Assembly: GCA_045120555.1 (NCBI GenBank)
Contig: JBGVEZ010000153.1
Location: forward strand, 1 to 40,803
Source: Eubacteriales bacterium
GTDB lineage: Bacteria; Bacillota; Clostridia; Oscillospirales; CAG-272
DNA: 40,803 nt
Direction of reading: 5' to 3'
Part shown: positions 4,302 to 18,039 of the stretch, piece by piece
How the letters are laid out: every line of letters begins with the position of its first letter
Numbering within the stretch: position 1 is the first letter of the stretch
The notes under the pieces: model-generated
What the model was told of the DNA's origin: nothing
The model's database searches: none
The model's input: the letters and a program-made list of their open reading frames with translations, nothing else
Position numbers and translations under genes: made by a program

Positions 4302-5492
4302 TTATGCCTCGGGGCTGTACACCATTGCTCCGGGAGCAACGACGTCGCCGCATTCAATTACGTTTCCGGGACCTATAAGAGCTATATCGGCGCCGTCCGC
4401 ATGAGGACATCCGACCTTCGCTCCGCTCTTTACCGTTACGTTTGCACCGACAATACTGTTTCCTACGTATGCGCCGTCCTCTATAACGGTATCACTCATA
4501 ACAACGCTGTCCTCAACGACCGCTCCGACGCCAATCTTGACGTTTGCACCGATAACGCTGTTCTTAACCGTACCGAATATCTCACAGCCCTCTGTTATCG
4601 CGCAGTTGTCAACAGTTGCGTCCGCACCAACGTACTGAGGAGCATGAGCATCGTGACGCGCGTATATTCTCCAGTCCTCACTGCCGCAGTCAAGGTTCGG
4701 CTTGTCACCGAGGAGGTCCATATTCGCTTCCCAGAGCGAGGAGATGGTTCCGACGTCCTTCCAATAGCCCTCGAAGGGATATGCAAACATTCTTTCCTTC
4801 GCCTCAAGCATTGCGGGAATGATATTCTTACCGAAGTCATTTGCCGAGCCCTCGGTCTTTTCATCCTCCTCAAGATAGCTTGCAAGCTTCTTTCTGTTAA
4901 AAATGTAAATACCCATGGACGCAAGAGTGCTGTCGGGGTTCTTCGGCTTTTCCGAGAACTTATAAATGCTTCCGTCCTCATTTGCGCTCATTATACCGAA
5001 TCTGCTGGCCTCCTCTATCGGAACGTCAATTACAGCGATCGTGCAGTCGGCGTTGTTTTCCTTATGGAAGTCGAGCATCTTTGCGTAGTCCATCTTGTAG
5101 ATATGGTCACCCGAGAGAACGAGAACGTAATCGGGATCGTACAGATCTATAAAGTGAAGATTCTGATAAATAGCATTAGCCGTTCCGCGATACCAATCGC
5201 TCTTTCCCTGTCCCTGATAGGGAGGAAGGATCTTTACACCGCCTATTGTGCGGTCAAGGTCCCAGGGGAGACCGTTTCCGATGTAATCGTTAAGTTCGAG
5301 GGGCTGATACTGCGTAAGAACACCGACGGTATCAATGCCGGAGTTGATGCAGTTTGAGAGGGTGAAGTCGATGATACGGTACTTTCCGCCGAACTGAACG
5401 GCGGGCTTTGCCACAGAGCTTGTCAAGGCATAGAGTCGTGAACCCTGACCGCCTGCGAGCAGCATTGCAACGCATTCTTTTTTCTTGTACAT
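4302..5492 (-). CDS. glgC: Glucose-1-phosphate adenylyltransferase (ADP-glucose pyrophosphorylase)
   Basis: [24 protein letters not shown]... carries the GGxGxRL box. The start was moved to the ATG at 5492, giving GGAGG-ttttt-ATG; the upstream ATG overlaps the SD itself. Confidence 0.93.
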
Positions 5493-5591
5493 AAAAACCT
5501 CCATTTTCCTTTGCGCTGTAGTTGCGCTGTATTTTCTTTCTTTTGGTTACTGTATTATTATAAACGGGACTCTCCCGCAGGTTACCTTACT

Positions 5592-7592
5592 TTACTGCTC
5601 CTTTGACGCACGGCGGGGCTTTGCACCTCTCGTCGCACGCGCGGATGCGTCATCACGCTCAAAAACACGCCTTTCGACAGTCTTTACGTTTCTCGGGCGC
5701 TTTCCGTTAAAGATAAGCGCGCCGTATGCGGGCATTTTTATTTTCGTACCGAAGCCCGAGCGTGACGTATGACTTCCGGTACCTATAAGAACAGAATCGT
5801 CCGTGTCGCAATATCCGCCGTACTGCTTATCGGCAGAATTGAACACGCATTTAAAGCGTCCGTCAAACGGCAAGGGAAGCTCAAAATCGCGGTATTCAAC
5901 CGGTGTGAAGTTGATTGCAACAACAAGCACCTCGCCCTTCTTGTTTCTTCTGCAGAAGGAGATTATGCTCTTGTCCGCATTGTCAGGGTCAAGCCACCAA
6001 AAGCCCTCCCACGAATTTTCGATCTCCCACAGCTGGCTGTGCTCAAGATAGAATTTATTGAGCGCGGCAACAAAGCTCTGGAATCGCTCGTGCATGGGAT
6101 AGTCAAGCAAAAACCATTCGATCGAATTTTCGTAGTCCCATTCTCTGAACTGTCCTATCTCCGAGCCCATGAAGTTGAGCTTTTTACCGGGATGCGTCAT
6201 CTGCCATACAAGAAGCGCACGCGCCGTTGCAAATTTATCCTCATACGAAACGGGAGCCTTGTCAAGCAGCGATTTCTTTCCGTGAACGACCTCATCGTGT
6301 GAAAACGGCAGAACGTATTTCTCGGAAAAGGCATATGTCAGCGAGAAGGTAAGCTTATCGTGCGAATACTTTCTGTATATAGGGTCCTGCTCAACGTAGG
6401 CGAGCGAATCGTTCATCCAGCCCATATTCCACTTCATCGTAAAGCCGAGTCCGTCGTTTTCAAAGCCGGTGATGTTCGAATATGCGCTCGATTCCTCCGC
6501 TATCATCATAACGTCCGGGAATTTATCGTGCATATATCCGTTCAGCTTCTTGAAGAACGCGATCGCCTCAAGGTTACGGTTGTCTCCGTAAACGTTCGGA
6601 ACCCATTCTCCCGGCATGCGGTCGTAGTCAAGGTAGAGCATGGATGCAACCGCATCAACTCTCAGTCCGTCAACGTGGAATTTCTCCGCCCAATATGCGG
6701 CGTTCGACACGAGGAAGCACTGAACCTCGTTTCTTCCAACGTCAAAGCATCTCGTTCCCCAGCCTCTGTGCTCAATGCGATCGCTTCCCTGATACTCGTA
6801 AAGCGGGCTTCCGTCAAATTCGTAAAGCCCGTGTGCATCCTTCGGGAAATGAGCGGGAACCCAGTCCATAATAACGCCTATGCCCGCACAGTGCAGCATA
6901 TCCACAAACTCGCAGAAATCGGTGGGTGTTCCGAATCGGGAGGTGGGTGCGTAGTAGCCGCAAACCTGATAGCCCCAGGAGCCGTCATAGGGATGCTCGG
7001 CGACCGGCATTATCTCAACGTGTGTGTAGCCCATCTGCTTTACGTAGGTGCAAAGCTCGGTGGCAAGCTGCTTGTAGGTCAGATATTCGCCCTCAGCATT
7101 CCGCATAAACGAGCCGAGATGGACCTCGTATATATTTATAGGTGATGCCTCAAAGCCGTAGCTTGCACGTCTTTGCCTGTTTCGCATCCAGAGCGAATCC
7201 TTCCATTTATATTCCGCCGACGTAAAAACGGATGCCGTAAGAGGAGGCTTTTCACACATGAAGGCATACGGATCTGCCTTATATATCGTCCTTCCGTTAC
7301 GCTCGATTATATACTTGTATTTCTGATTTTCGCCAAAGCTGTCCCCGGGAAGTCTGCACTCAAAAATTCCGCCCTCGGTTATGCGTGTCATTTGCGTGGA
7401 TTTTGACCAATTGTTAAAATCCCCCGTAACGTATACCGCGTCCGCATTCGGCGCCCAGACACGGAATACGTATCCTCCGTTGACCTTATGCGCCCCCATA
7501 TAGTCGTACGCCTTGTAGTTCGTACCCTGATGGAAGAAATACGCAGGCAGATCGTCTCTTATCTGAACGCTTTTATCGGTGGCTCGTTCCAT
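5592..7592 (-). CDS. glgB: 1,4-alpha-glucan branching enzyme (GH13)
   Basis: GH13 catalytic motifs are visible: GVIMDWVPAHF, GLRVDAVASMLY, MIAEESSA, LPFSHDEVVHGK. The start was set at the ATG at 7592, preceded by GGAGGGG; the 21 extra N-terminal codons in the ORF track have no RBS. The protein carries a basic C-terminal tail of about 35 aa (..RNVKTVERRVFERDDASARATRGAKPRRASKEQ). Confidence 0.93.
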   Translation of the reverse strand: MERATDKSVQIRDDLPAYFFHQGTNYKAYDYMGAHKVNGGYVFRVWAPNADAVYVTGDFNNWSKSTQMTRITEGGIFECRLPGDSFGENQKYKYIIERNGRTIYKADPYAFMCEKPPLTASVFTSAEYKWKDSLWMRNRQRRASYGFEASPINIYEVHLGSFMRNAEGEYLTYKQLATELCTYVKQMGYTHVEIMPVAEHPYDGSWGYQVCGYYAPTSRFGTPTDFCEFVDMLHCAGIGVIMDWVPAHFPKDAHGLYEFDGSPLYEYQGSDRIEHRGWGTRCFDVGRNEVQCFLVSNAAYWAEKFHVDGLRVDAVASMLYLDYDRMPGEWVPNVYGDNRNLEAIAFFKKLNGYMHDKFPDVMMIAEESSAYSNITGFENDGLGFTMKWNMGWMNDSLAYVEQDPIYRKYSHDKLTFSLTYAFSEKYVLPFSHDEVVHGKKSLLDKAPVSYEDKFATARALLVWQMTHPGKKLNFMGSEIGQFREWDYENSIEWFLLDYPMHERFQSFVAALNKFYLEHSQLWEIENSWEGFWWLDPDNADKSIISFCRRNKKGEVLVVAINFTPVEYRDFELPLPFDGRFKCVFNSADKQYGGYCDTDDSVLIGTGSHTSRSGFGTKIKMPAYGALIFNGKRPRNVKTVERRVFERDDASARATRGAKPRRASKEQ

Positions 7593-7675
7593 AAAACCCC
7601 TCCATTCGACAATTTTGGATGCTTTTAATCTTTTATTTACAATTTTTCGATACATAGTCCATTTTTACTAATAAT

Positions 7676-7704
7676 ATTATACTACTAAATCCTATGTTTA
7701 ACAA
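7676..7704 (-). promoter_or_regulatory. Candidate sigma-A promoter of the glg operon
   Basis: - strand: TTGTTA (7704-7699), a 17-nt spacer, then TATAAT (7681-7676). This lies about 85 nt upstream of the glgB ATG. Confidence 0.5.
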
Positions 7705-7727
7705 TAGATTTTTTGATAATTTATAAT

Positions 7728-7771
7728 TTGGAAACATTTTTTAACAACATATCACCAATTGGGAAACATTT
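7728..7771. promoter_or_regulatory. Direct repeat TTGG(G)AAACATTT x2 upstream of the glg promoter (candidate operator)
   Basis: ttggaaacatttt at 7728-7740 and ttgggaaacattt at 7759-7771, with a 32-nt register. The repeats lie between the hlyIII terminator and the glg -35 element. Confidence 0.3.
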
Positions 7772-7805
7772 AAAAAGCCGACCCGGTAATATATTCCGGA
7801 TCGGC
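7772..7805 (-). terminator. Rho-independent terminator of the hemolysin-III gene
   Basis: - strand RNA: GCCGAUCCGG-aauauauua-CCGGGUCGGC (10 bp, one G.U pair) followed directly by UUUUU. It starts 19 nt after the stop codon. Confidence 0.75.
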
Positions 7806-7824
7806 AACATCTATTTATAAAAGT

Positions 7825-8502
7825 CTACAGAACGTAAATAAGCACAGCGGCGATGTGAAGTGCGCTTCCGATGCAGGTGAAGATGTGGAACACCGAATGC
7901 ATATAGCGGCGTTTTTTTGTAAATCCGTAGAATATTGCTCCGATACTGTACATAATACCTCCTATAAGCACAAGCACGCTTCCCTCGGTGCCAACACTTT
8001 TTTGCATAGTATCTCCGGTAAAAACAATACACCAGCCCATGGTAAGATAGCAGATCATCGAAAATTTACTGTATTTTTTTATGTCGATCGAATTAAGTAT
8101 GATCCCGACAGCCGCCGCCACCCAAACCGTACCGAATACCGTCCATCCGATAACGGGATTATACTCTCGGATGTTACATATCGTTATCGGAGTATACGTT
8201 CCGGCTATAAGAACGAAGATGGTACAATGATCAAGTATCTGAAATACCTTTTTTGCAGTCGGCACGTTAACACTAAGACCGTGATATATGCTTGACATCG
8301 TATACAGGATTATCAAAGAAAATCCGAACACAAGAGCACCCGCAACAGCATATCCATCTCCAGACAACGCCGCCTTCACAGTTCCGAGAACGAGGGCAAT
8401 AACTCCCATGCCTCCTCCGACGATGTGCGTTACCATATTCATTATTTCTTCGCCTCTCGAATATCTCGGAAGCTGTCTTTCGGAAAGCCTTGTTCTTGTC
8501 AT
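7825..8502 (-). CDS. Hemolysin III / PAQR-family integral membrane protein
   Basis: Seven hydrophobic segments. Family-typical motifs are present: EEIMNMVTHIVGG, SSIYHG, DHCTIFVLIAGTYTP, HSVFHIF. The start was set at the ATG at 8502 (GAGGTG-ttatat-ATG). Confidence 0.85.
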   Translation of the reverse strand: MTRTRLSERQLPRYSRGEEIMNMVTHIVGGGMGVIALVLGTVKAALSGDGYAVAGALVFGFSLIILYTMSSIYHGLSVNVPTAKKVFQILDHCTIFVLIAGTYTPITICNIREYNPVIGWTVFGTVWVAAAVGIILNSIDIKKYSKFSMICYLTMGWCIVFTGDTMQKSVGTEGSVLVLIGGIMYSIGAIFYGFTKKRRYMHSVFHIFTCIGSALHIAAVLIYVL

Positions 8503-8657
8503 ATATAACACCTCTTTTTTCGATTTCTTAACTGATTTTAAGTGTTTTTAACACCACCAAATATAGTATACCAAACTATTATTAGAAACATTCGTATTAT
8601 TTTTATACTTTTTGTAAACAGTATTTCCGCAAGCCGAACTCACCGTGACGTTCTCTA

Positions 8658-8686
8658 TTGACAAATCAGCATTTGAGTGGTATAAT
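8658..8686 (+). promoter_or_regulatory. Consensus extended -10 sigma-A promoter (VanZ-like gene)
   Basis: TTGACA (8658-8663), an exact 17-nt spacer ending in TGG, then TATAAT (8681-8686). Confidence 0.75.
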
Positions 8687-8713
8687 ATTATATCCGAATA
8701 TACGGAGGCTTCT

Positions 8714-9352
8714 ATGATAAATGAAATCAACAAACGCAAATTCCAAATAATTACGGGTTGTGCGCTACTCGCCTTTTCCGCAATACTCATAATCACTTAC
8801 CTGTCACGCATAGCAGGCTATAAAAGCACCGATTTTCTTCTGCTTGTCGCATCATCCGCATCGGCTGTGGTCGCAGCACGGCTCTTAAAAAATAAAAGAC
8901 TTGATCTGATACTCTGCCGCGTGTTTTTCTGGCTGTCCATCGAATTTTTTCTGCGCGCGGCTATATACGGACGAAGCGATTTTTTTGAGTACACGGTTTT
9001 TGAGGCTGACGCAAGGAGACTTAAGTACTACTTTATACATAAAGTAAATCTCGTTCCGTTTAAGTCGATATCCCTCTTTTTTGGTCTTCCCTTTTCCGCA
9101 ATATTCACAAATATTCTCGGAAACATAGGTCTCATGGTTCCGCCGTCACTTCTTTCGCCGATAGCATATCCCGGTAAAAGGAAATTTATGCAAGCCTTTT
9201 TCACGGGTGTGGGGCTTTCACTGTTCGTCGAGCTTTCACAGTTTTATTATATGTGCGGAGCGTTTGACGTTGACGATCTCATATTAAATTCGACAGGTGC
9301 GCTTATAGGTGCATTAATGCTCCGTTTGCTTGATAAATACAGGAATTCCTGA
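8714..9352 (+). CDS. VanZ-like membrane protein
   Basis: The start is at the ATG at 8714 (GGAGG-cttct-ATG). The protein is multi-pass hydrophobic and has the VanZ-type pattern NLVPF...GNIGLMVP...ELSQ...FDVDDLILNSTGALIG. Confidence 0.7.
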   Translation: MINEINKRKFQIITGCALLAFSAILIITYLSRIAGYKSTDFLLLVASSASAVVAARLLKNKRLDLILCRVFFWLSIEFFLRAAIYGRSDFFEYTVFEADARRLKYYFIHKVNLVPFKSISLFFGLPFSAIFTNILGNIGLMVPPSLLSPIAYPGKRKFMQAFFTGVGLSLFVELSQFYYMCGAFDVDDLILNSTGALIGALMLRLLDKYRNS

Positions 9353-9381
9353 ATATTTTTACATTATTTCTGCATATATAC

Positions 9382-9410
9382 TTGACATTATACAAAAAAT
9401 GTGGTATAAT
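9382..9410 (+). promoter_or_regulatory. Consensus extended -10 sigma-A promoter (argH-argF)
   Basis: TTGACA (9382-9387), an exact 17-nt spacer ending in TGG, then TATAAT (9405-9410). It lies 41 nt upstream of the argH ATG. Confidence 0.75.
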
Positions 9411-9450
9411 TATGCATATTTTTATTTTCAAAAACAGGAGAATCAGAATA

Positions 9451-10830
9451 ATGGCAACAAAGATGTGGGCAGGGCGCTTCACGAAGGAAAGCGACGTTCT
9501 TGCGGACGATTTCAACTCGTCTATAGGCTTCGATTTTCGAATGTATAAAAACGATATAGAGGGATCGATAGCGCACGCAACAATGCTCGGCGCCTGCGGA
9601 ATAATTCCGAAAAGCGCGGCAGAGCATATTTGCGAGGGACTTTGCACAATACTTGACGACATAAACTGCGGAAGGCTTTGTGCCGATCCTGCCTGTGAGG
9701 ACGTGCATATGTTTATTGAGGCGGAGCTTACAAAAAGGATCGGCGACGAGGGTAAAATGCTCCACACTGCAAGGAGCAGAAACGATCAGGTAGCACTTGA
9801 TATCAGACTTTATCTGCGCAACGAAGCAAATGAGGTAGTCTCACTCATAAAGGAGCTTATTGCCGCGATTCACAAAACGGCATCCGAAAACACAGACGCG
9901 ATAATGCCCGGCTACACGCATCTGCAGAGGGCTCAGCCGATAGTTTTCGCACATCAGCTCCTCGCGTACGCCTTTATGCTCATACGCGATTGCGGAAGGA
10001 TAGAGGACGCGGCAAAGAGAATGAACTATTCTCCTCTCGGCTCATGTGCGCTTGCGGGAACCACGTATCCGATAGACCGCCACATGACGGCATCCGCCCT
10101 CGGCTTTGACGGCGTTGTAGAGAATTCGATAGACGGCGTTTCTGACAGAGATTTTTGCCTTGAGCTTATGAGCGCGTTTTCGATACTGATGATGCATCTT
10201 TCCCGTCTTTCGGAGGAGATAATCCTCTGGTCGAGCTGGGAATTCCGCTTCGTTGAGCTTGACGATGCTTACACTACCGGATCGAGCATAATGCCGCAAA
10301 AGAAAAACTCTGACATGGCAGAGCTCGTAAGAGGCAAGACCGGCAGAGTTTACGGCGATCTTATTGCACTTCTTACCACATTAAAGGGGCTTCCGCTTGC
10401 ATACAACAAGGATATGCAGGAGGACAAGGAGGCCATGTTCGACAGCCTTGACACGGTAAAGAAATGCCTTGAAATATTCGCGCCGATGGTTGCAACAATG
10501 AAGGTTAAAAAGAACGTAATGGCAGAGGCGGCAAGCCGCGGCTTTATCAACGCCACCGACCTTGCGGATTACTTAACGAAGAAGGGCGTTCCCTTCCGCA
10601 CGGCATACAAGCTTGTCGGCGGACTTGTCGGAAAATGCATCGCAGAGGGAAAAACTCTTGAGCAGCTGACGCTTGAGGAATTCAAGTCAGAGGACGCACG
10701 CTTCGACTTTGACGTATACGAGGCCATCTCTATGGCGGAATGTGTAAAGAGAAGGATCTCTTACGGAAGCACGGGACCTGAATCGGTAAGCGTACAGCTT
10801 AGCAGAATTTCGGAATTTTTGGGCAAATAA
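9451..10830 (+). CDS. argH: Argininosuccinate lyase
   Basis: [13 protein letters not shown]... together with the fumarate-lyase superfamily signature [15 protein letters not shown]. The start at 9451 is preceded by AGGAG; the ORF-track extension upstream covers the promoter. Confidence 0.95.
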
Positions 10831-10852
10831 ACGGCACGGAAAGGAGACTATT

Positions 10853-11848
10853 ATGGATCTCAAGGGTAGGGATTTTTTAAAGCTTTTGGACTTTAGCTCC
10901 GAGGAGATAGAATACCTCATATCTCTCGCGGCTAGCCTCAAGGTAAAGAAAAAGGTTGGTATTGCACACAAATACTGCGAGGGCAAGAACATAGCTCTCA
11001 TATTTGAAAAGACAAGCACACGCACGCGCTGCAGTTTTGAGGTTGCAGCGCACGATCTCGGCATGGGAGTTACTTATCTTGATCCGACGGGCTCACAAAT
11101 AGGCAAAAAGGAAAGCATTGCAGACACGGCGAGAGTGCTTTCCTCGATATACGACGGCATCGAGTACCGCGGATACGGTCAGGAGATCGTTGAGGAGCTG
11201 GCAAAATACTCGTCCGTCCCCGTCTGGAACGGTCTTACAAACGAATTTCACCCGACGCAGATACTTGCCGATTTTCTTACTATAAAGGAAAGATTCGGTC
11301 GCCTTAAGGGCATAAATTTCGTTTACACGGGCGACGCGCGCTACAACATGGGCAATTCCCTTATGGTCGGATGCGCAAAAATGGGCATGAATTTCACCGC
11401 TTGTGCGCCGAGGGAATATTTCCCGAGCGAGGAGCTTATTGCGGAATGTCAGAAGATCGCAAGCGAGACAGGTGCAACGCTCTCCTTTATCGAAAGCCCT
11501 ATGGATGCGGTAAAGGGTGCAGACGTAATTTACACCGACGTTTGGGTATCTATGGGAGAAAGCCCTGACGTTTGGGAAAAGAGGATAAAGGATCTTTCTC
11601 CGTATCGAGTCACCGCCGAGCTTATGGATGCGGCAGGAAAGGATTGCGTATTCATGCACTGTCTGCCCGCATTCCACGATCTGGGGACGGGTATCGGCAA
11701 GGAAATTCACGAAAAATTCGGTATTGACTGTATGGAGGTAACGGACGAGGTATTTGAATCCGACCGCTCCATTGTTTTTCCCGAGGCCGAAAACAGAATG
11801 CACACTATAAAGGCAGTTATGCTTGCTACACTGAAGGAAGAGCTGTAA
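10853..11848 (+). CDS. argF: Ornithine carbamoyltransferase
   Basis: Carries the STRTR carbamoyl-phosphate motif, HPTQ, and the HCLPA ornithine-binding motif. It sits 22 nt after argH with an AAGGAG RBS. The anabolic assignment is inferred only from linkage to argH. Confidence 0.88.
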
Positions 11849-11862
11849 CGCTCGTTCCTTCC

Positions 11863-11950
11863 GCGCCCCATCCGGGCTTCCGCTTGCGGAAGCCTCGCAG
11901 TCCTTTGGACTGCGACCTCCTTCGCTTTGCGAAGGAGGCGGATGGGGCGC
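11863..11950. other. 88-nt perfect nested palindrome: a 12-bp closing stem enclosing three abutting hairpins (four-way junction)
   Basis: GCGCCCCATCCG (11863-11874) pairs with CGGATGGGGCGC (11939-11950). Inside are three hairpins: GGCTTCCGC-tt-GCGGAAGCC (11875-11894), TCGCAGTCC-ttt-GGACTGCGA (11895-11915) and CCTCCTTCGC-ttt-GCGAAGGAGG (11916-11938). That is 40 Watson-Crick pairs with zero mismatches and zero unpaired junction nucleotides. The structure is certain from the sequence; its function is unknown. Confidence 0.85.
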
Positions 11951-11995
11951 GTATTTATTGATGCAGAATTATTTCATTGGTGATGCGGCACTTCA

Positions 11996-12367
11996 CTACT
12001 CATCAGCAACGATCACGGAAAACAGCTCCTCGATACGGTCAGCTCTGCCGCACGCGTGGAGGTAGCCGAAGAGGCATTCAAGCTCGGTTGCATGTCGGTA
12101 TTCGCCGATCGTTGCGTTTTTCGGAATGTTGTTGTGGGTAAGATTCCTTCCTCGCCTGCAAACGTTCTCCTCCTCTTCTGTAAGGAGGGAGCGGATCTTC
12201 TCCATTGCTATCGCCTGCTTCGGCGCGGTAACGAAGGCGAGCGCGGAGCGGTTGAGATCGGCGGAGCGGGACTTTCCCAGCTTTACGAGGTATGTCCTGA
12301 CGCAAAGCTCGTAAACGCAATCGCCGAGATAGGCAAGCGCCTGCGTGGTAAGCTCTGAGGGTATCAT
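11996..12367 (-). CDS. mrnC: Mini-ribonuclease 3 (Mini-III, 23S rRNA maturation)
   Basis: 123 aa. ALAYLGDCVYELCVRTYL is the single RNase III catalytic-domain signature, followed by ...EYRHATELECLFGYL. The size and the lack of a dsRBD fit Mini-III. Confidence 0.85.
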   Translation of the reverse strand: MIPSELTTQALAYLGDCVYELCVRTYLVKLGKSRSADLNRSALAFVTAPKQAIAMEKIRSLLTEEEENVCRRGRNLTHNNIPKNATIGEYRHATELECLFGYLHACGRADRIEELFSVIVADE

Positions 12368-12371
12368 AGGC

Positions 12372-13499
12372 TTATAAATTCTCGATATCCGAAAGAGCGA
12401 CCTTGATTATAGCCGCGATGCTGTCAGCCATCTTGGAGAAGCCCATATCGTTGGGATGGACGGTATCCATCGTGCAATCGTTCTCCTCGTGACCCATAAA
12501 GAAGGTCTCGCCGTCGATGTAATAAACCTTCTTGTCGCCTCTCTCGTAGGCATATTTAAGGGTGTCCATAACAACGCTTCTTCTATCTGCGGACGCTTTC
12601 TTCGACCAGGACTTGTTGTAGATAACGTTCGGGCTTGAGATAATGACAACGGGAACGTCGGGGCGAACCTCACGGAAACGCTGATATGCGCGGAGATGCG
12701 TGTTTCTGAGGTATTCCGCGTTCGGAGCGTTGTGATCGTAGTCGAGAACGAAAACGGACATGGGAAGCGTGCGGAGATAGTTGATTATCGCATCCTCTGC
12801 CTTTGCGTTGCCCGAAAAGCCGTAGTTCTGAACGTCAGCGTTGAGCTTGCGGCAAAGCATGTTGGTATACGTAAGTCCGGGGCGGCTTGCGGCGGTACCG
12901 TGAACGATGGATGAGCCGTAAATAACGATGGGCTCTTTATGCATGTAGGGCATACCCTTACCAAGCGTCGCATCCTTCTGGATACCGACGTAAAGATTCT
13001 TCACCACCGAATGGATCGGGAAATTGATCGTGAAATAGCGCTGACGTCTCTCGCCCTTGAGATCGATAACACTTTCGTAGATAAGATCTCCGCCCGTTAT
13101 ATCTGCAAAGGGTGGCAGAAACGCCACGGTGTACTTTGAATCGTATTCGGTATCGGTGTAGAGGTCAAAGCCCGCGCTCTCAGCAAGCGGAATGTGCGAA
13201 TTCTTGCCTGCCTTAACGAATTCAACCTTAATAGCAATGTAGCCGGAGTCGGTGGAGAAGCGCACGCGAGTACCGCTGCTCTCCTTTTCAAGTCCCGAGA
13301 CCTTCGCGCTCGTCGCCTTGCCCACCTCTGTAGGGAGGCGGTGGAAATAGGGCTCGGTGGTCGGCTCATACGCGCCGTAGATCTCAAACGGAGCCTTTCT
13401 TACATCATAAAACACAACGTCGGGCTTGTTGATGTTCGTTTCTATCTTCATATTGTTGTCGAGCTCGACGTAAACTTCCTTCTTTACTTCTTCTGCCAT
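12372..13499 (-). CDS. SGNH/GDSL-family hydrolase with an N-terminal GxDLY domain
   Basis: The N-terminal half contains GFDLY. The C-terminal half carries the SGNH blocks: IVIYGSSIVHG (block I Ser), GFSGN (block II), DYDHN (block III) and DTVHPND (block V Asp/His). The substrate cannot be inferred. Confidence 0.75.
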   Translation of the reverse strand: MAEEVKKEVYVELDNNMKIETNINKPDVVFYDVRKAPFEIYGAYEPTTEPYFHRLPTEVGKATSAKVSGLEKESSGTRVRFSTDSGYIAIKVEFVKAGKNSHIPLAESAGFDLYTDTEYDSKYTVAFLPPFADITGGDLIYESVIDLKGERRQRYFTINFPIHSVVKNLYVGIQKDATLGKGMPYMHKEPIVIYGSSIVHGTAASRPGLTYTNMLCRKLNADVQNYGFSGNAKAEDAIINYLRTLPMSVFVLDYDHNAPNAEYLRNTHLRAYQRFREVRPDVPVVIISSPNVIYNKSWSKKASADRRSVVMDTLKYAYERGDKKVYYIDGETFFMGHEENDCTMDTVHPNDMGFSKMADSIAAIIKVALSDIENL

Positions 13500-13525
13500 G
13501 ATCTTAATTCCTTTCTTTATATCGG

Positions 13526-14266
13526 TTATTTGAGCAAAAATGCGAGTGCCTCGTGCACCTTTTCAAAATCGTCAACGCAGACGAACGGGAAATCCGACTT
13601 AAAAACTGCCTCGTCGTTGCCACCGCTTCCGTAGTCGTCACCGCAGTAAACAACGTTTTCGTGGGAGAGTCCGTGCTCCTTGCAGTAATTGTCAAGCGCA
13701 TAGTACTTATCGTAGGGCGCGGGTACCATGTCGAAGGAGGACGAGCCGCCAACGAAAACGGTGTATTCGGAGAAGATGTCGCAGACCTCAGCGTAGATCT
13801 TGCGGCGCTTCGAGCGGTCGGGGTCAAAGGAAAGCTTCTCGTCGATGGGTGCCTTTGTGCCGATTATCGGGATCGTTACCGCACCCGACGCGTGGAATTC
13901 AACCGTATCGCCATAGTATTCGGTAAAGCCGTGCTTTTGGCGGATGCCCTCAACTCTCTCGGTAACGCTTTCGCGGTCGCAGGGGAGGACGTGCTCGGCA
14001 ACGATGTCGATGTCGCCGGTTTCCTTGTTGTATTCGGCGTACTGGAGGCCGTAGTTACCGATAATGTCGATCGGGTAGCCGTCCATCTGATTGAAAATTC
14101 GACGGCAAGCACCCGCTCCGACCATAAGGAGCTTGTACCTTTCGGAAAGCGCATCGAGCATATTTTTTGAGTTCTCGCCGAGCTTTGACTTGTGCTGTGT
14201 AAGAGTGCCGTCAAGGTCGAACGCAACAAGCTTTATTTTTTTCGGATCAACGCTTGTTATCTTCAT
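13526..14266 (-). CDS. HAD-superfamily hydrolase (Cof/IIB-like phosphatase)
   Basis: VAFDLDGTLT is HAD motif I; GGSSSFD and CGDDYGSGGNDEA are motifs III/IV. 246 aa. Confidence 0.8.
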   Translation of the reverse strand: MKITSVDPKKIKLVAFDLDGTLTQHKSKLGENSKNMLDALSERYKLLMVGAGACRRIFNQMDGYPIDIIGNYGLQYAEYNKETGDIDIVAEHVLPCDRESVTERVEGIRQKHGFTEYYGDTVEFHASGAVTIPIIGTKAPIDEKLSFDPDRSKRRKIYAEVCDIFSEYTVFVGGSSSFDMVPAPYDKYYALDNYCKEHGLSHENVVYCGDDYGSGGNDEAVFKSDFPFVCVDDFEKVHEALAFLLK

Positions 14267-14327
14267 AATTTAATGTCCTTTTCTAATATATTTGCGGAGT
14301 GTCCGCACAACGAAAATCATCTATATA

Positions 14328-14356
14328 ATTATATCACATTTTACCCGAATTGTCAA
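14328..14356 (-). promoter_or_regulatory. Consensus extended -10 sigma-A promoter (HAD-SGNH-mrnC operon)
   Basis: - strand: TTGACA (14356-14351), an exact 17-nt spacer ending in TGA, then TATAAT (14333-14328). Confidence 0.7.
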
Positions 14357-14375
14357 TAGAAAAGCGAATATTGCG

Positions 14376-14407
14376 AAAAAAGGATCGCCCCGAGCAGAGC
14401 TCGGGGC
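14376..14407 (-). terminator. Rho-independent terminator after the LRR gene
   Basis: - strand RNA: GCCCCGAGC-ucu-GCUCGGGGC, then GAUCC and UUUUUU. It starts 9 nt after the stop codon. Confidence 0.7.
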
Positions 14408-14415
14408 AAATTATT

Positions 14416-17400
14416 TTACTGCTTGTTTGCGGGGACGGTTACCGTGCCGTCGGTGCAGATGATTTTGATCTCACCGCATTGCCAATTCCAGTCATCGCGA
14501 ATGTTTTTCAGGTTTTTCCATTCGGTACGCGTTCCTTGATATACTATATTTTTCAAATTCTTACAGCCTCTCATAGAATGCTCTTCCAAGGTACAGCTGT
14601 TATTCGGCAGAACTATCTCCTCCAGCGTTGTATTAAACGTAAAAGCCCCCTTATAAATAGTTTTTACACCGTCGGGAATCGTGTAAGAGGTTTCCTGCTT
14701 TCCTCTCGGATAGAGATAGAGAGTTTGGCCGCTCTTGGAAAAAAGGATATTATCTACTACCTTATAGTAATTATTATCATCCGAAACTATGACCGTTTTC
14801 AGATTTTCCAAATGAACGAGCATCGAAGTGGTTACACAAGTATCCTTCCCCAATATTTCAAGGACCTCTACTGATGAGCATCCGTAAAATACATTCACAT
14901 ACAAAGTAGTTTCTCCAAGAAAAGTTATCTTCTCAAGCCCTGTATTCCAAAAAGCTCCGTCAGCAATCACTTCTATATGATCGGGAACGACCAGCTCCTT
15001 AATTGATGTACAGCCCTTAAAAGCGTTTTTAGTTATATATTTCAAGCTCTCCGGAAATTCAGGAACTTTTTTCAGAGATGAACAATATTGAAACGCTCCT
15101 TCGTAAAGAGCGGTTACGGAATCCGGGAGGGTTATTTCCTGAAGACTCCTGCATCCGTCAAACGCATACTTTGATATAATCTTCAGCCCTTCAGGAAGAA
15201 GGATAGACTCAAGCACAGAGTTGTTAAAGGCATAGGTCCCGATAGTTTCAACACCGTTAAGAACAGTATATTCCTTTTCATCCTTTCCGCTCGGATAATA
15301 TACTAATTGCTTTCCGTCCGATGAATAAATAACACCATCCACCACTTTATAGCTATTGTGGTCTCCTATATCAATCGATTCAATTGATTCACAGCCTGCA
15401 AACATATCTCCGCTGATCGATTCCACAGAGCTTGAAAGGACTAACTTTTCAAGTGCTTTGCAGTTATGGAAGGCCTCGGTACCGACCTTCTGTACACCTT
15501 GTGCATTTATATAAGTTAGAGCCGCACATCCTTTGAACGCACTGTCACCAATGACCGTAAGGGTGTCTGTCAGGTCTATCTTATTCAAGGCAGTGCCTAA
15601 AAAGGCAGACGCGCCTATTTCCTTTACGCCCGGGGCGCTTACGTAAGTCAACGACCCGCAATTTTCGAATGCGCTCTCGCCGATAAATGTAAGCGATTTG
15701 GGAAACTCTATGGATTTAAGCTTTGTGTTTCTCCAGAAGCACTTACTTCCTATGCTCGTTACGTTCGTCAGCTTCACGCTCGCAAGGCTCGTACAGGTGT
15801 TAAATGCGTGCTCACCTATTGCAAACGAGCTTCCGGAAGCACTAAAGCTTTCAAGCGCACTACATTTGTAGAACGCATAGTCTCCGATAGATTTCACACC
15901 CGTAACATTAACCTTCTTCAGCTTGCTGCAACCGTAAAAGGCATTATCTCCTATAGCGAGATCTTTGCCGACGGAATTAACCTCGGTGATCTGGTAGCAT
16001 CCGTAAAACGCCTTTTCACCTACGTAAGTAAGAACCGGCGGCACATTTATAAATGCCTTTGTGCATCCCTCAAATGCGCTCATTCCGATGTATGTTACGG
16101 AATCGGGAATACTTATGCTCGTCAGATTATAACAGCCCTTAAAGGCCTCCCAGCTTATCGTCTTAATGCCATTCGGAATAACGACCACCCTAAGATTTCG
16201 GCAGTCCCTCATACCGCCTACACGGCTCTGATTCGCTGAAAACTTTACATAACTCAGAGCATCGCAAAACTCAAAAGCATCGCTTCCAACATAAGTAACG
16301 CTGTCCGGTATCTCGAGCCTTTCAAGGTTCTTGCACCACATGAAGGATCTATAGCCTATAGTCTTTAGGGTGTTTGGCAAATTGAGTTCCTTTATATCCA
16401 TACTTTGGAATGAATATTCACCTATCGACTCAAGCCCGGGCTCTGAAAAGATGAGCTCGGTGAGTGCATTCTCCATCAGCACGTAGGAGCCTATCTTCTT
16501 AACACTACCGGGAATAACGAGCTTTTTCAGATGTGTTGTTGTTTTGAAAACATAATCCCCTATCTCGACAACGCCATCCGGAACGGTATATTCGGTTTCG
16601 GGCTTGCCTTCGGGATACGCTACAAGCTTCTTACCGTCAGCCGTAAATACGATTCCTTCAACCGATTTATAATATTTTCCGTTTCCTATGTTTATTGCGG
16701 TAAAGCACGTGGTGTTAACGTGCGACTGATAGTCGTAGACAAACTCTCTCAAGCTCGGTGCAAGATCGACTACCTCAAGAGAACGGCAGCTTCCAAAGGC
16801 ATATTTTTTAACTACCTCTATTCCGGGAGCGCTTATATACTTTATCTTATCGCAACTATAAAACGCACCCGTACCAAGTATCTTCAAGCTTTTGGGAAGA
16901 ATAATTTTTTCAAGACTTACGCATTGCGAAAACGCGCTGCTGCCTATCTCATTCAAATTTTCCGAAAATCTTATATCGACAAGGGATTCGCAGTAATAAA
17001 ATGCTCCTCCCCCTATTTTTGTAACCGATTCAGGGATGTATACCGATTCAAGCAAATCACAGCCATAAAACACTTCGGTTTTTATTTCGGAAATTCCGCT
17101 GGGAAATTTCACAGATTTGAGCGATTGACAATAGCGAAATGCCGCATTTCCGATGTCAGTCATACTATCAGGAAATTCGATCGTCTTCACAGAGCTACAG
17201 TTATAAAATGCAAAATCCCCGATATATTCAAGGCTTTGAGGAAATAAAATTTTACCAATGAATATCTGTCCGTCAAATGCGTTTTTTGAGATGGTGATCA
17301 CTCCCTCATCAATAACAAGCTCACCGGTTCCAGCGGACGAATTAAGACTTGATCCGGTATAAAACGCTTTCTCACCGATAACCTTAACGCTTCCGGGAAT

Positions 17401-18039
17401 ATATATCCCCGTGTAGTACGTTCCCGCAAGTGCGCTTTTACCTATTTCCGCGACGGGGAGTCCGTTGTGCGTTGAAGGAATTATAACCTTTCTATCGGTA
17501 AATGTTCCCTTACCTGAGAGGATATAGTACGTTTTATCTGCGCTGAGGGTAAATTCAAAGCCCTCAGACGGAGTAAGCTCAACGTTTCTTTCAAGCTTTG
17601 AGCAGTATTTGCAGAAATGATTCACATACTCGTGATCTACGATAGGGATAATTTCATGTTCTCTGTATCCGCATTTAGTACACGAATGGTATTGGTCACC
17701 TTCATGACGACACGTTGGAGTCTCGCCTACTGTCCACTCCCCAAAGCTGTGCTCGTGAGCTGTGGTTTCAGGCGGTGCTTCCGTTGTGGGCGTTCCCGTC
17801 GTCATCGGTGCGCTTGTAGTCCCCGGAACGGACGTTGTTTCCTGCTGATTCGGGAGGGTATCGCTTTCCGGGGAGCGGGTTTCGGTTGTGAAAGCGTTGT
17901 CCGAGGAGACGGTGGGGGCGGTGCTTTCGATCGGCCCTGCGTTTCTATAGATAAGAGTGAACATTGTACTGCCGAGGACGACCGCAAAGACGAGGATGAT
18001 GGTTGAGGTGATGGCGAGCACCTTAGTTAATCTTTTCAT
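14416..18039 (-). CDS. BspA-type leucine-rich-repeat (LRR_5-like) cell-surface protein, N-terminally membrane-anchored
   Basis: 1207 aa. Domain order: an N-terminal TM segment (VLAITSTIILVFAVVLGSTMF), a Thr/Pro-rich linker, a Cys/His-rich module, then dozens of roughly 23-aa repeats of the form I(P/G)xxAFxxCxxLxx(I/V)x(I/L)Pxx(V/L). There are three super-repeats, each opening with YYK(V/S)V(D/E)G(I/V)...YP.GK.E..YT(V/I).(D/N)G. Confidence 0.85.
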   Translation of the reverse strand: MKRLTKVLAITSTIILVFAVVLGSTMFTLIYRNAGPIESTAPTVSSDNAFTTETRSPESDTLPNQQETTSVPGTTSAPMTTGTPTTEAPPETTAHEHSFGEWTVGETPTCRHEGDQYHSCTKCGYREHEIIPIVDHEYVNHFCKYCSKLERNVELTPSEGFEFTLSADKTYYILSGKGTFTDRKVIIPSTHNGLPVAEIGKSALAGTYYTGIYIPGSVKVIGEKAFYTGSSLNSSAGTGELVIDEGVITISKNAFDGQIFIGKILFPQSLEYIGDFAFYNCSSVKTIEFPDSMTDIGNAAFRYCQSLKSVKFPSGISEIKTEVFYGCDLLESVYIPESVTKIGGGAFYYCESLVDIRFSENLNEIGSSAFSQCVSLEKIILPKSLKILGTGAFYSCDKIKYISAPGIEVVKKYAFGSCRSLEVVDLAPSLREFVYDYQSHVNTTCFTAINIGNGKYYKSVEGIVFTADGKKLVAYPEGKPETEYTVPDGVVEIGDYVFKTTTHLKKLVIPGSVKKIGSYVLMENALTELIFSEPGLESIGEYSFQSMDIKELNLPNTLKTIGYRSFMWCKNLERLEIPDSVTYVGSDAFEFCDALSYVKFSANQSRVGGMRDCRNLRVVVIPNGIKTISWEAFKGCYNLTSISIPDSVTYIGMSAFEGCTKAFINVPPVLTYVGEKAFYGCYQITEVNSVGKDLAIGDNAFYGCSKLKKVNVTGVKSIGDYAFYKCSALESFSASGSSFAIGEHAFNTCTSLASVKLTNVTSIGSKCFWRNTKLKSIEFPKSLTFIGESAFENCGSLTYVSAPGVKEIGASAFLGTALNKIDLTDTLTVIGDSAFKGCAALTYINAQGVQKVGTEAFHNCKALEKLVLSSSVESISGDMFAGCESIESIDIGDHNSYKVVDGVIYSSDGKQLVYYPSGKDEKEYTVLNGVETIGTYAFNNSVLESILLPEGLKIISKYAFDGCRSLQEITLPDSVTALYEGAFQYCSSLKKVPEFPESLKYITKNAFKGCTSIKELVVPDHIEVIADGAFWNTGLEKITFLGETTLYVNVFYGCSSVEVLEILGKDTCVTTSMLVHLENLKTVIVSDDNNYYKVVDNILFSKSGQTLYLYPRGKQETSYTIPDGVKTIYKGAFTFNTTLEEIVLPNNSCTLEEHSMRGCKNLKNIVYQGTRTEWKNLKNIRDDWNWQCGEIKIICTDGTVTVPANKQ

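Follow-up and report, generated by a model that had tools for sequence, protein, structure and literature searches.

Contig JBGVEZ010000153.1 of an Eubacteriales bacterium (assembly GCA_045120555.1), whose whole length of 40,803 nucleotides is here called the window, contains at positions 11863-11950 an 88-nt nested palindrome, hereafter the element, located between the convergent genes argF and mrnC. Comparison with contigs from public assemblies, designated Lnnn, revealed that the element forms a separate unit, about 90 bp long, of which copies occur at no fewer than two loci in one lineage of an uncultured gut Clostridia (Oscillospiraceae-like) species. As judged from sequence comparison, and with slightly better than even confidence, it can be regarded as one copy of a small GC-rich intergenic repeat of nested palindromes, akin to repetitive extragenic palindromic (REP) sequences and to miniature inverted-repeat transposable elements (MITEs), which would act as a branched bidirectional terminator or as a protector of 3′ ends. 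The class to which it belongs, small palindromic repeats at gene ends, is familiar; its architecture and evolutionary behavior are unusual.

Fold and genomic loci of the element

Read directly from the sequence, the element is composed of GCGCCCCATCCG, GGCTTCCGC TT GCGGAAGCC, TCGCAGTCC TTT GGACTGCGA, CCTCCTTCGC TTT GCGAAGGAGG and CGGATGGGGCGC, in this order, with 40 Watson-Crick pairs and 0 unpaired junction bases; G and C account for 60 of the 88 nt (0.68). Minimum free energy (MFE) predictions gave a four-way junction for the + strand RNA (−73.5 kcal/mol, z −10.4), for the − strand RNA (−72.9 kcal/mol, z −12.0) and for the DNA (−47.6 kcal/mol, z −11.1), and among 200 shuffles per substrate none was as stable in any of these cases (0/200). 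The perfect nested palindrome with its four-way junction, the number of pairs, the fully paired junction and the base composition had all been proposed in a first-pass annotation, which a model made from the letters alone, and are confirmed here. The same annotation had foreseen a CUUG tetraloop on opening of the innermost pair of hairpin 1, which is indeed found in the MFE structure (CUUG/CAAG, on a stem of 8 bp), and the pairing in hairpin 3 of a Shine-Dalgarno (SD)-like AAGGAGG with an anti-SD-like CCTCCTT (CCUCCUU in RNA), which is present as well. Once 11862/11951 are counted, the outer stem comprises 13 bp, 11/13 of them G-C; the element starts with (C)GCGCCCC and finishes with GGGGCGC(G), every base being paired, and its terminal repeats can be written as the pattern GCGCCCCRYCCG-N50-80-CGGRYGGGGCGC. 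Only one copy is contained in the 40.8-kb window (n=1). The features of the region are as follows:

10853..11848, + strand: argF, ornithine carbamoyltransferase (NCBIfam TIGR00658), reading into the element
11849..11861, + strand: argF-side spacer, without an arm; opposite-strand tail GAAGGAAC, 0/8 T
11862..11951, no strand assigned: complete core element, a 13-bp closing stem with three abutting hairpins, the unit common to all copies
11863..11874, no strand assigned: outer stem 5′ arm GCGCCCCATCCG, a terminal inverted repeat with 11939-11950
11875..11894, no strand assigned: hairpin 1, GGCTTCCGC TT GCGGAAGCC, 9 bp; stem invariant in all copies, loop TT or TC
11895..11915, no strand assigned: hairpin 2, TCGCAGTCC TTT GGACTGCGA, 9 bp; loop AAA in L143, L011 and L012
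11916..11938, no strand assigned: hairpin 3, CCTCCTTCGC TTT GCGAAGGAGG, 10 bp; loop AAA in L143, AAG in L146, TCC in L011
11939..11950, no strand assigned: outer stem 3′ arm CGGATGGGGCGC, invariant in all copies
11952..11976, + strand: mrnC-side AT-rich arm TATTTATTGATGCAGAATTATTTCA, a T-rich tail for + strand transcripts, 6/8 T
11996..12367, − strand: mrnC-like gene (Mini-RNase III, 123 aa, a single RNase III domain), reading into the element

The core element is exact in L001, L002, L006, L010 and L123, and variants of it occur in L011, L143 and L146. It begins 14 nt after the argF stop codon and lies 45 nt from that of mrnC. The earlier identification of both flanking genes is borne out by the TIGR00658 match of argF and by the similarity of the 123-aa protein to solved Mini-III structures (4oun, E 6e-19; 6tnn). 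As a side observation, the last base of hairpin 2 and the 5′ arm of hairpin 3 (window 11915-11938) together read ACCTCCTTC, or ACCTCCTTT in L011, which resembles the anti-SD 3′ end of 16S rRNA, and the 3′ arm of hairpin 3 is a perfect SD, AAGGAGG, that pairs with this anti-SD-like arm; the pairing is probably coincidental. The argF stop codon is spanned by a small hairpin (11827-11862), which was set aside because L146 does not conserve it.

An exact look-up of the Mini-III protein retrieved 23 contigs, four of which (L001, L002, L006 and L010) cross the element; these contain the identical 88-mer and have on its far side ygjV, an Imp-YgjV membrane-protein gene that is convergent with mrnC across the element (mrnC>element<ygjV). 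The identical 88-mer in the same arrangement was also found in L123, a contig of a more diverged strain recovered by scanning metagenomes with hairpin 1, so that the arrangement is present in 5 assemblies; the other 28 of the 29 matches of that scan were unrelated simple hairpins, L123 being the only true copy. A different locus was identified through the exact argF protein, which is encoded on the 17-kb contig L011, where argF is followed by a variant of the element and then by a barnase-like RNase gene. The same order occurs in L146, whose argF protein is 95% identical, and in these 2 assemblies mrnC is not nearby. As contigs built by different assemblers from different samples contain the identical 88-mer, the element itself is no artefact of assembly.

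Collinearity of the window with L001, L002, L006 and L010 is limited to 11861-17536, and with L011 it extends over 4853-11952, with divergence past 11952; the two collinear blocks overlap by exactly the element. As collinearity switches precisely there, two copies have been joined at the argF-element-mrnC junction of the window, by recombination or in assembly. The native loci, called ancestral here, are argF>element>barnase-like RNase gene and mrnC>element<ygjV, and the window joins the left side of the argF locus, at the element, to the right side of the mrnC locus. Apart from the window, argF and mrnC flanking one element were seen in no assembly (5 ygjV and 2 RNase-gene assemblies compared). 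The first-pass view of an element specific to the argF/mrnC locus is not supported, because in L011 and L146 it follows argF and adjoins an unrelated gene, with mrnC not nearby.

The joint would have arisen either by recombination between two copies of the element, producing a deletion if they were direct and an inversion if they were inverted, or by an assembler that bridged the repeat. The second origin, in which the junction, not the element, is a chimera of two loci connected through the shared 88 bp, is a serious possibility, though we hold it to be less than even. It is in keeping with the pairing of argF and mrnC being absent elsewhere, ygjV standing opposite mrnC in 5 assemblies and the RNase gene opposite argF in 2, and with the behavior of most assemblers, which break at the element or fold back there. 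Indeed, L003-L005, L007-L009, L147, L148 and L155 stop at or inside it (the contig reached via P0122 ends at the element); L012 (1489-1609) is a fold-back contig, with an inverted duplication centered on the loop of hairpin 2. Among the contigs that stop, the Logan k=31 unitigs L003, L004 and L007 end at the last 31-mer still holding an mrnC-specific flank base, as expected if the following k-mer has two contexts. However, a normal read is longer than the element and should span it; L012 independently joins argF to the window-type variant (T at position 9, A-T in hairpin 2) and not to that of L011; and a genuine deletion or inversion between copies yields the same sequence.

The cluster representative of the VanW protein of L011 lies on a contig of 1.7 kb, a look-up of glgA gave no match, and two further proteins, P0121 and P0134, proved to come from unrelated species. 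P0121, retrieved in the search for argF homologues, comprises 510 aa and contains the N- and C-terminal OTCase domains twice; it is encoded at L145:892-2424 on an unrelated high-GC contig. Two side observations concern contigs of the native loci. At L011:7211-10161, the secreted barnase-like RNase gene (PF00545) lies behind a perfect consensus promoter (L011:7154-7182) and is followed by a gene for a 794-aa protein, a fusion that joins a Barstar domain, at its N terminus, to a rhamnosidase-type six-hairpin glycosidase domain. In L001, two tandem 82-nt units, 85% identical, and a partial third copy (6438-6601 and 7082-7128) sit in a 2.3-kb segment that is absent from L006 and L010.

Conservation of stems and variation of loops

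Diverged lineages provide a measure of how the element evolves. L146 differs from the window in neighboring genes, with nucleotide identities of 86.3% in the argF coding sequence and 82.8% in argH, while all stem bases of the element are identical (80/80) and its loops are TC, TTC and AAG versus TT, TTT and TTT in the window. In L143, where identity is 86.3% for mrnC, 88.4% for the GDSL gene and about 70% for the spacer between stop codon and element, the 80 stem bases are again unchanged (80/80), and the loops of hairpins 2 and 3 are exact complements of those of the window (AAA for TTT). L123 is identical over the whole element (88/88) and 81% identical on the ygjV side. Overall, the intergenic DNA adjoining the element is 64-81% identical, and the chance that 80 bases stay unchanged at 14% divergence is 0.863^80, or about 8e-6. 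It follows from these comparisons that the stems are constrained and the loops not, and that inversion of the loops is frequent.

The pattern in L011 is different: its argF is diverged by 0.4% only, with flanks 99.6% identical, yet it carries the most divergent copy of the element. Two changes in this copy are two-sided and compensatory, an A-T to C-G change in hairpin 2 and a C-G to T-A change in hairpin 3; in addition, there is one C·A mismatch in the outer stem, and the loops of hairpins 2 and 3 are AAA and TCC. Among all copies, 99.4% of cells are paired, all pairs being Watson-Crick, with no G-U. The shuffle control for covariation (29 of 500 shuffles) is a weak one, as only four distinct sequences of the element are available. 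The L011 copy probably derives from an exchange with a further member of the family. Perfect stems, inverted loops and compensatory changes made in one step have been described as products of template switching during replication (PMC8794818).

Gene ends, transcription termination and competing explanations

The position of the element is that of a terminator. Seven contigs of genus-level relatives (L108-L113 and L144), in which Mini-III is 72-79% identical, keep the GDSL-mrnC pair without the element downstream; the 3′ side of their mrnC is occupied by a terminator made of an A-tract, a hairpin and a T-tract (as in L108, L109, L111 and L144), for example AAAAAATCCGAGCAGGC-AAAA-GCCTGCTCGGATTTTTT. 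Similarly, in L150, whose argF is 83% identical, a canonical terminator, AAAAAAGGGCAGTTC-GGGA-GAACTGCTCTTTTTT, lies downstream of argF. In L011, a terminator scan found no terminator-like site besides the element between the argF stop codon and the promoter, a 12/12 consensus with TG that starts 56 nt past the element, and in L001 it found no other such site in the mrnC-ygjV spacer. The latter folds into a single long, imperfect palindrome with the element inside it (MFE −92.8 kcal/mol), in which AT-rich arms of about 30 nt, TGAAATAAT...ATTATTTCA, pair imperfectly on either side. In the window, an ordinary bidirectional terminator with T-rich tails on both strands, GCCCCGAGC-AGA-GCTCGGGGC, was also observed at 14385-14409, between an LRR-protein gene and a HAD hydrolase gene, which indicates that this species uses canonical terminators too.

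The tails, taken as the eight bases that follow the 13-bp closing stem, are distributed according to the direction of the genes:

argF or ygjV reading in: TATTTATT, 6/8 T
mrnC reading in, L001: GTTTGCTT, 5/8 T
argF reading in, L011: TTTGCATT, 5/8 T
diverged L123 and L146: TTACGTTC and TTCAAATT, 4/8 T
opposite strand at the argF site, with no gene reading in: GAAGGAAC, 0/8 T

T-rich tails are thus confined to the directions from which a gene reads in. A mechanism can be proposed in which the inner hairpins would fold first during transcription; emergence of the 3′ arm would then allow the G+C-rich closing stem of 13 bp to form, immediately ahead of the moderately U-rich tail, and stem and tail together would stop or release RNA polymerase. 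The 3′ structure left over, of about −73 kcal/mol, would block 3′ exonucleases and, every arm being an exact palindrome, it would serve transcripts from either side. Selection on pairing on both strands would keep the stems perfect, probably aided by template switching in replication, which would also account for the loop flips and for the one-step compensatory changes. Two of the alternatives left open by the first-pass annotation, a copy of a REP-like family and a bidirectional terminator or 3′-end stabilizer, are those to which the evidence points.

Several points weigh against a terminator or 3′-end protector that spreads as a repeat. The mrnC direction in the window has no U-tail (0/8 T), as had been noticed earlier for the − strand transcript; however, the left flank of the window belongs to the argF copy, which explains this lack, and the native mrnC tail is GTTTGCTT. 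The U-tracts are weak and interrupted, with 4-6 T in 8; the element is a branched four-way junction, not the single unbranched hairpin with a loop of 3-8 nt that defines an intrinsic terminator, and a simple terminator scan does not report it. We know of no branched terminator that has been demonstrated experimentally. Only two loci were found, with one copy in the 40.8-kb window (n=1) and 0 in about 65 kb of genus-level relatives, so that a "dispersed family" rests on a small number. That the most divergent copy stands in L011, at 0.4% divergence in argF, suggests exchange with further copies. Finally, the stems do not differ between paralogous loci or over 14% divergence, which speaks for a sequence-specific constraint or for gene conversion and not for pairing alone, so that a protein-binding or recombination role is possible.

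Such a role is central to the main rival proposal, that the element is a site in DNA, either a MITE-like mobile or recombinogenic element or a recognition site, whose ends or Holliday-junction-like fold would be bound by a transposase, a recombinase or a structure-specific protein, its position at gene ends reflecting merely where insertions are tolerated. We consider this unlikely, although the collinearity breakpoint falls exactly at the edges of the element in three contexts, and the stem sequence itself is identical at paralogous loci and over about 14% divergence. The loops flip as in the inversion of a DNA hairpin, L055 (a locus with 38% GC) and L096 have other inner hairpins closed by the same terminal 12-mer, and the mrnC/ygjV copy has imperfect inverted arms of about 30 nt, like a longer MITE. 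The pairs are all Watson-Crick, without G-U, but this is equally expected of an RNA element used on both strands. Moreover, a target-site duplication is visible in no context, no transposase or recombinase gene is found in the 4-5 kb past either copy, plasmids, phages and viral contigs gave no match, and the directional T-rich tails are left unexplained. A bolder version, which we regard as distinctly improbable, would place the element in a class of Oscillospiraceae DNA elements not yet described, in which a conserved terminal inverted repeat, GCGCCCCRYCCG, closes a variable set of three perfect hairpins and the fold, in single-stranded or extruded DNA, is the substrate of a structure-specific recombinase or transposase. 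Members of this class would be mobile, their copies would trade sequence with one another and cause rearrangements such as the argF/mrnC joint, and their use as terminators would be secondary and domesticated. It is also quite unlikely that the element is a selfish or functionless palindrome, kept perfect and homogenized by template switching and gene conversion and tolerated downstream of genes. Loop flips and two one-step compensatory changes fit template-switch mutation (PMC8794818), and the sharp difference of the L011 copy within flanks 99.6% identical is what conversion by another copy predicts. However, neutral conversion would not reduce the rate of substitution, whereas stem identity is 80/80 against 64-81% in the adjoining intergenic DNA; in both native spacers the element is the sole terminator candidate, where relatives have canonical terminators, and the T-rich tails are limited to the sides from which a gene reads in.

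The first-pass annotation had also speculated, by analogy with RNase III and the rnc leader, that the element is a locus-specific 3′-UTR (untranslated region) substrate through which mrnC would control its own expression, and this is very improbable. The element does lie 45 nt downstream of mrnC, both here and in a lineage whose Mini-III is 90% identical, and ACCU, a cleavage preference of Mini-III, occurs in it once, at the junction of hairpins 2 and 3. But ACCU spans this junction instead of lying within a helix, and the helices are just 9-13 bp. A second copy stands downstream of argF with mrnC not nearby, while the native partner on the opposite side of mrnC is ygjV, so that the element is common to two convergent genes. 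Among relatives at 72-79% identity it is absent 3′ of mrnC in 7/7 contigs, where plain terminators are found, and no conserved association with the Mini-III gene emerges. On these comparisons the element does not appear to be a control element specific to the Mini-III gene, and it opens no new Mini-III question.

Related elements and known repeat classes

The outer-stem pattern was used to scan a genome collection, in which 95 stretches were found, almost all of them chance palindromes in high-GC genomes, and none a copy of the element. The scan also revealed two Oscillospiraceae intergenic elements with the same terminal 12-mer, GCGCCCCGCCCG...CGGGCGGGGCGC (R/Y at positions 8-9), and the same three-hairpin plan:

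L055:3553-3630: 16-bp closing stem, three hairpins with loops TTT, GCC and AAAA, two unpaired bases; a GC-rich island in a locus of 38% GC
L096:3091-3189: 17-bp closing stem, three hairpins

Their inner hairpins are unrelated to those of the element. A kinship is suggested by the shared 12-mer ends and the architecture, and by these only; a covariance model (R1) run on about 355 kb recovered neither L055 nor L096 and found no further copies. Viral contigs gave no match to hairpin 1 and one to the outer-stem pattern, in a high-GC contig, which was taken for chance without inspection of the matched site; BLAST against plasmids and phages gave no match to the element. The Rfam check proposed earlier returned no family in the window at the gathering threshold, and at E<=10 only chance microRNA and snoRNA matches.

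Among known repeats, REP sequences and their BIME and REPIN combinations are close in several respects (PMC3733652, PMC3333891): they are short G+C-rich palindromic repeats located downstream of open reading frames (ORFs), between convergent or tandem genes, their units are often combined into larger foldable structures, roles in termination and in mRNA 3′-end protection have been proposed for them, and recombination between copies rearranges genomes. The location is shared by the element in all its arrangements (argF>element<mrnC, mrnC>element<ygjV and argF>element>RNase gene). However, the palindrome of a REP is defined by a tag at one of its ends, GTAG or CGTC, that is conserved and unpaired (PMC3733652) and that the element, with every base paired, lacks; it is a closed unit with three different hairpins inside an outer stem, whereas a REP is a single 20-40-bp hairpin or a doublet, and it was seen at two loci, whereas REPs number tens to hundreds per genome. 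An associated RAYT gene, for an IS200/IS605-like Y1 transposase, is a further trait of REPs. A kinship with GTAG REPs was considered and rejected, since GATGGGGCG resembles GTAGGGGCG weakly and the motif is absent from the window. A REPIN-like doublet of inverted GTAG-tagged hairpins, GTAGGGGCGACCTGCGGTCGCCC / GGGCGTTCGCAGAACGCCCCTAC, was noted past ygjV, in a variable region (L001:9576-9623; its start also at L006:4508); although near one copy of the element, it looks different from it.

MITE-like repeats (Correia/NEMIS, ERIC/IRU, RUP and BOX; PMC3184786, PMC2229807) are similar in size, about 90-150 bp, and in having terminal inverted repeats, which in the element are perfect over 13 bp. They are likewise intergenic, polymorphic between strains and co-transcribed with their neighbors, with a long RNA fold that can affect termination or stability. 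Their long imperfect hairpin contrasts with the perfect and branched pairing of the element, an immobile four-way junction. No target-site duplication was seen at ...TTCC|element|GTAT..., ...AACC|element|GTAT..., ...TTCC|element|GTTT... and ...TTTC|element|GTTC..., the outer ends of the longer version being uncertain. We know of no parent insertion sequence with the ends of the element.

Bidirectional and "hairpin cluster" terminators (PMC8355165) resemble it in placement and composition, since the element lies 14-45 nt past the stop codons of genes that read into it, a T-rich tail follows its G+C-rich stem on the strands that are used, and it stands where relatives have canonical bidirectional terminators at the same gene ends. 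Unlike the hairpins of such clusters, those of the element lie within a 13-bp closing stem and leave no junction base unpaired; its U-tracts are weak, and the same sequence recurs at different loci. A GC-rich cluster of four to five hairpins with a short outer stem (−76.8 kcal/mol) was observed at L019:46-155 in Pseudoflavonifractor sp. 524-17.

More distant systems share single traits. In the parvovirus adeno-associated virus (AAV), the linear single-stranded DNA genome ends in an inverted terminal repeat (ITR) that folds as a three-way, T-shaped junction and has a Rep-binding element and a nicking site; there too an outer stem closes small internal palindromes whose arms occur in either orientation, as the loop flips between TTT and AAA in the element, but the latter is a four-way junction inside a bacterial chromosome, without a Rep gene or a replicon end. 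The RNase III rnc leader hairpin is also a structured RNA adjoining an RNase III-family gene; the element differs in being 3′ and not 5′, in its short helices, in an association with the RNase gene that is not conserved and in having a second, unrelated locus. Integron attC sites are imperfect palindromes with extrahelical bases and R″/R′ core sites, RYYYAAC / GTTRRRY; they were discarded because pairing in the element is perfect, with no extrahelical base, and GTTRRRY is matched by none of the flanks GTTTGCA, GTTCAAA and GTATTTA. A tRNA-like cloverleaf was ruled out by loops of only 2-3 nt, and a rolling-circle origin or nick site by loops that are too small and by the lack of a Rep gene.

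At the element, a repeat of 88 bp, metagenome assemblies break and a rearrangement or mis-join is found, which is a practical warning for users of metagenome-assembled genomes. It also provides a natural case of perfect palindromes that stay intact over about 14% divergence, with loops that "flip-flop" and compensatory changes made in one step, such as template switching is held to produce. If the element is indeed a branched terminator or 3′-end protector in both directions, intrinsic-terminator function can come from a closed multi-hairpin module spreading as a repeat, and this would matter for terminator prediction in gut Clostridia, as scans for a hairpin plus U-tract would miss such sites.

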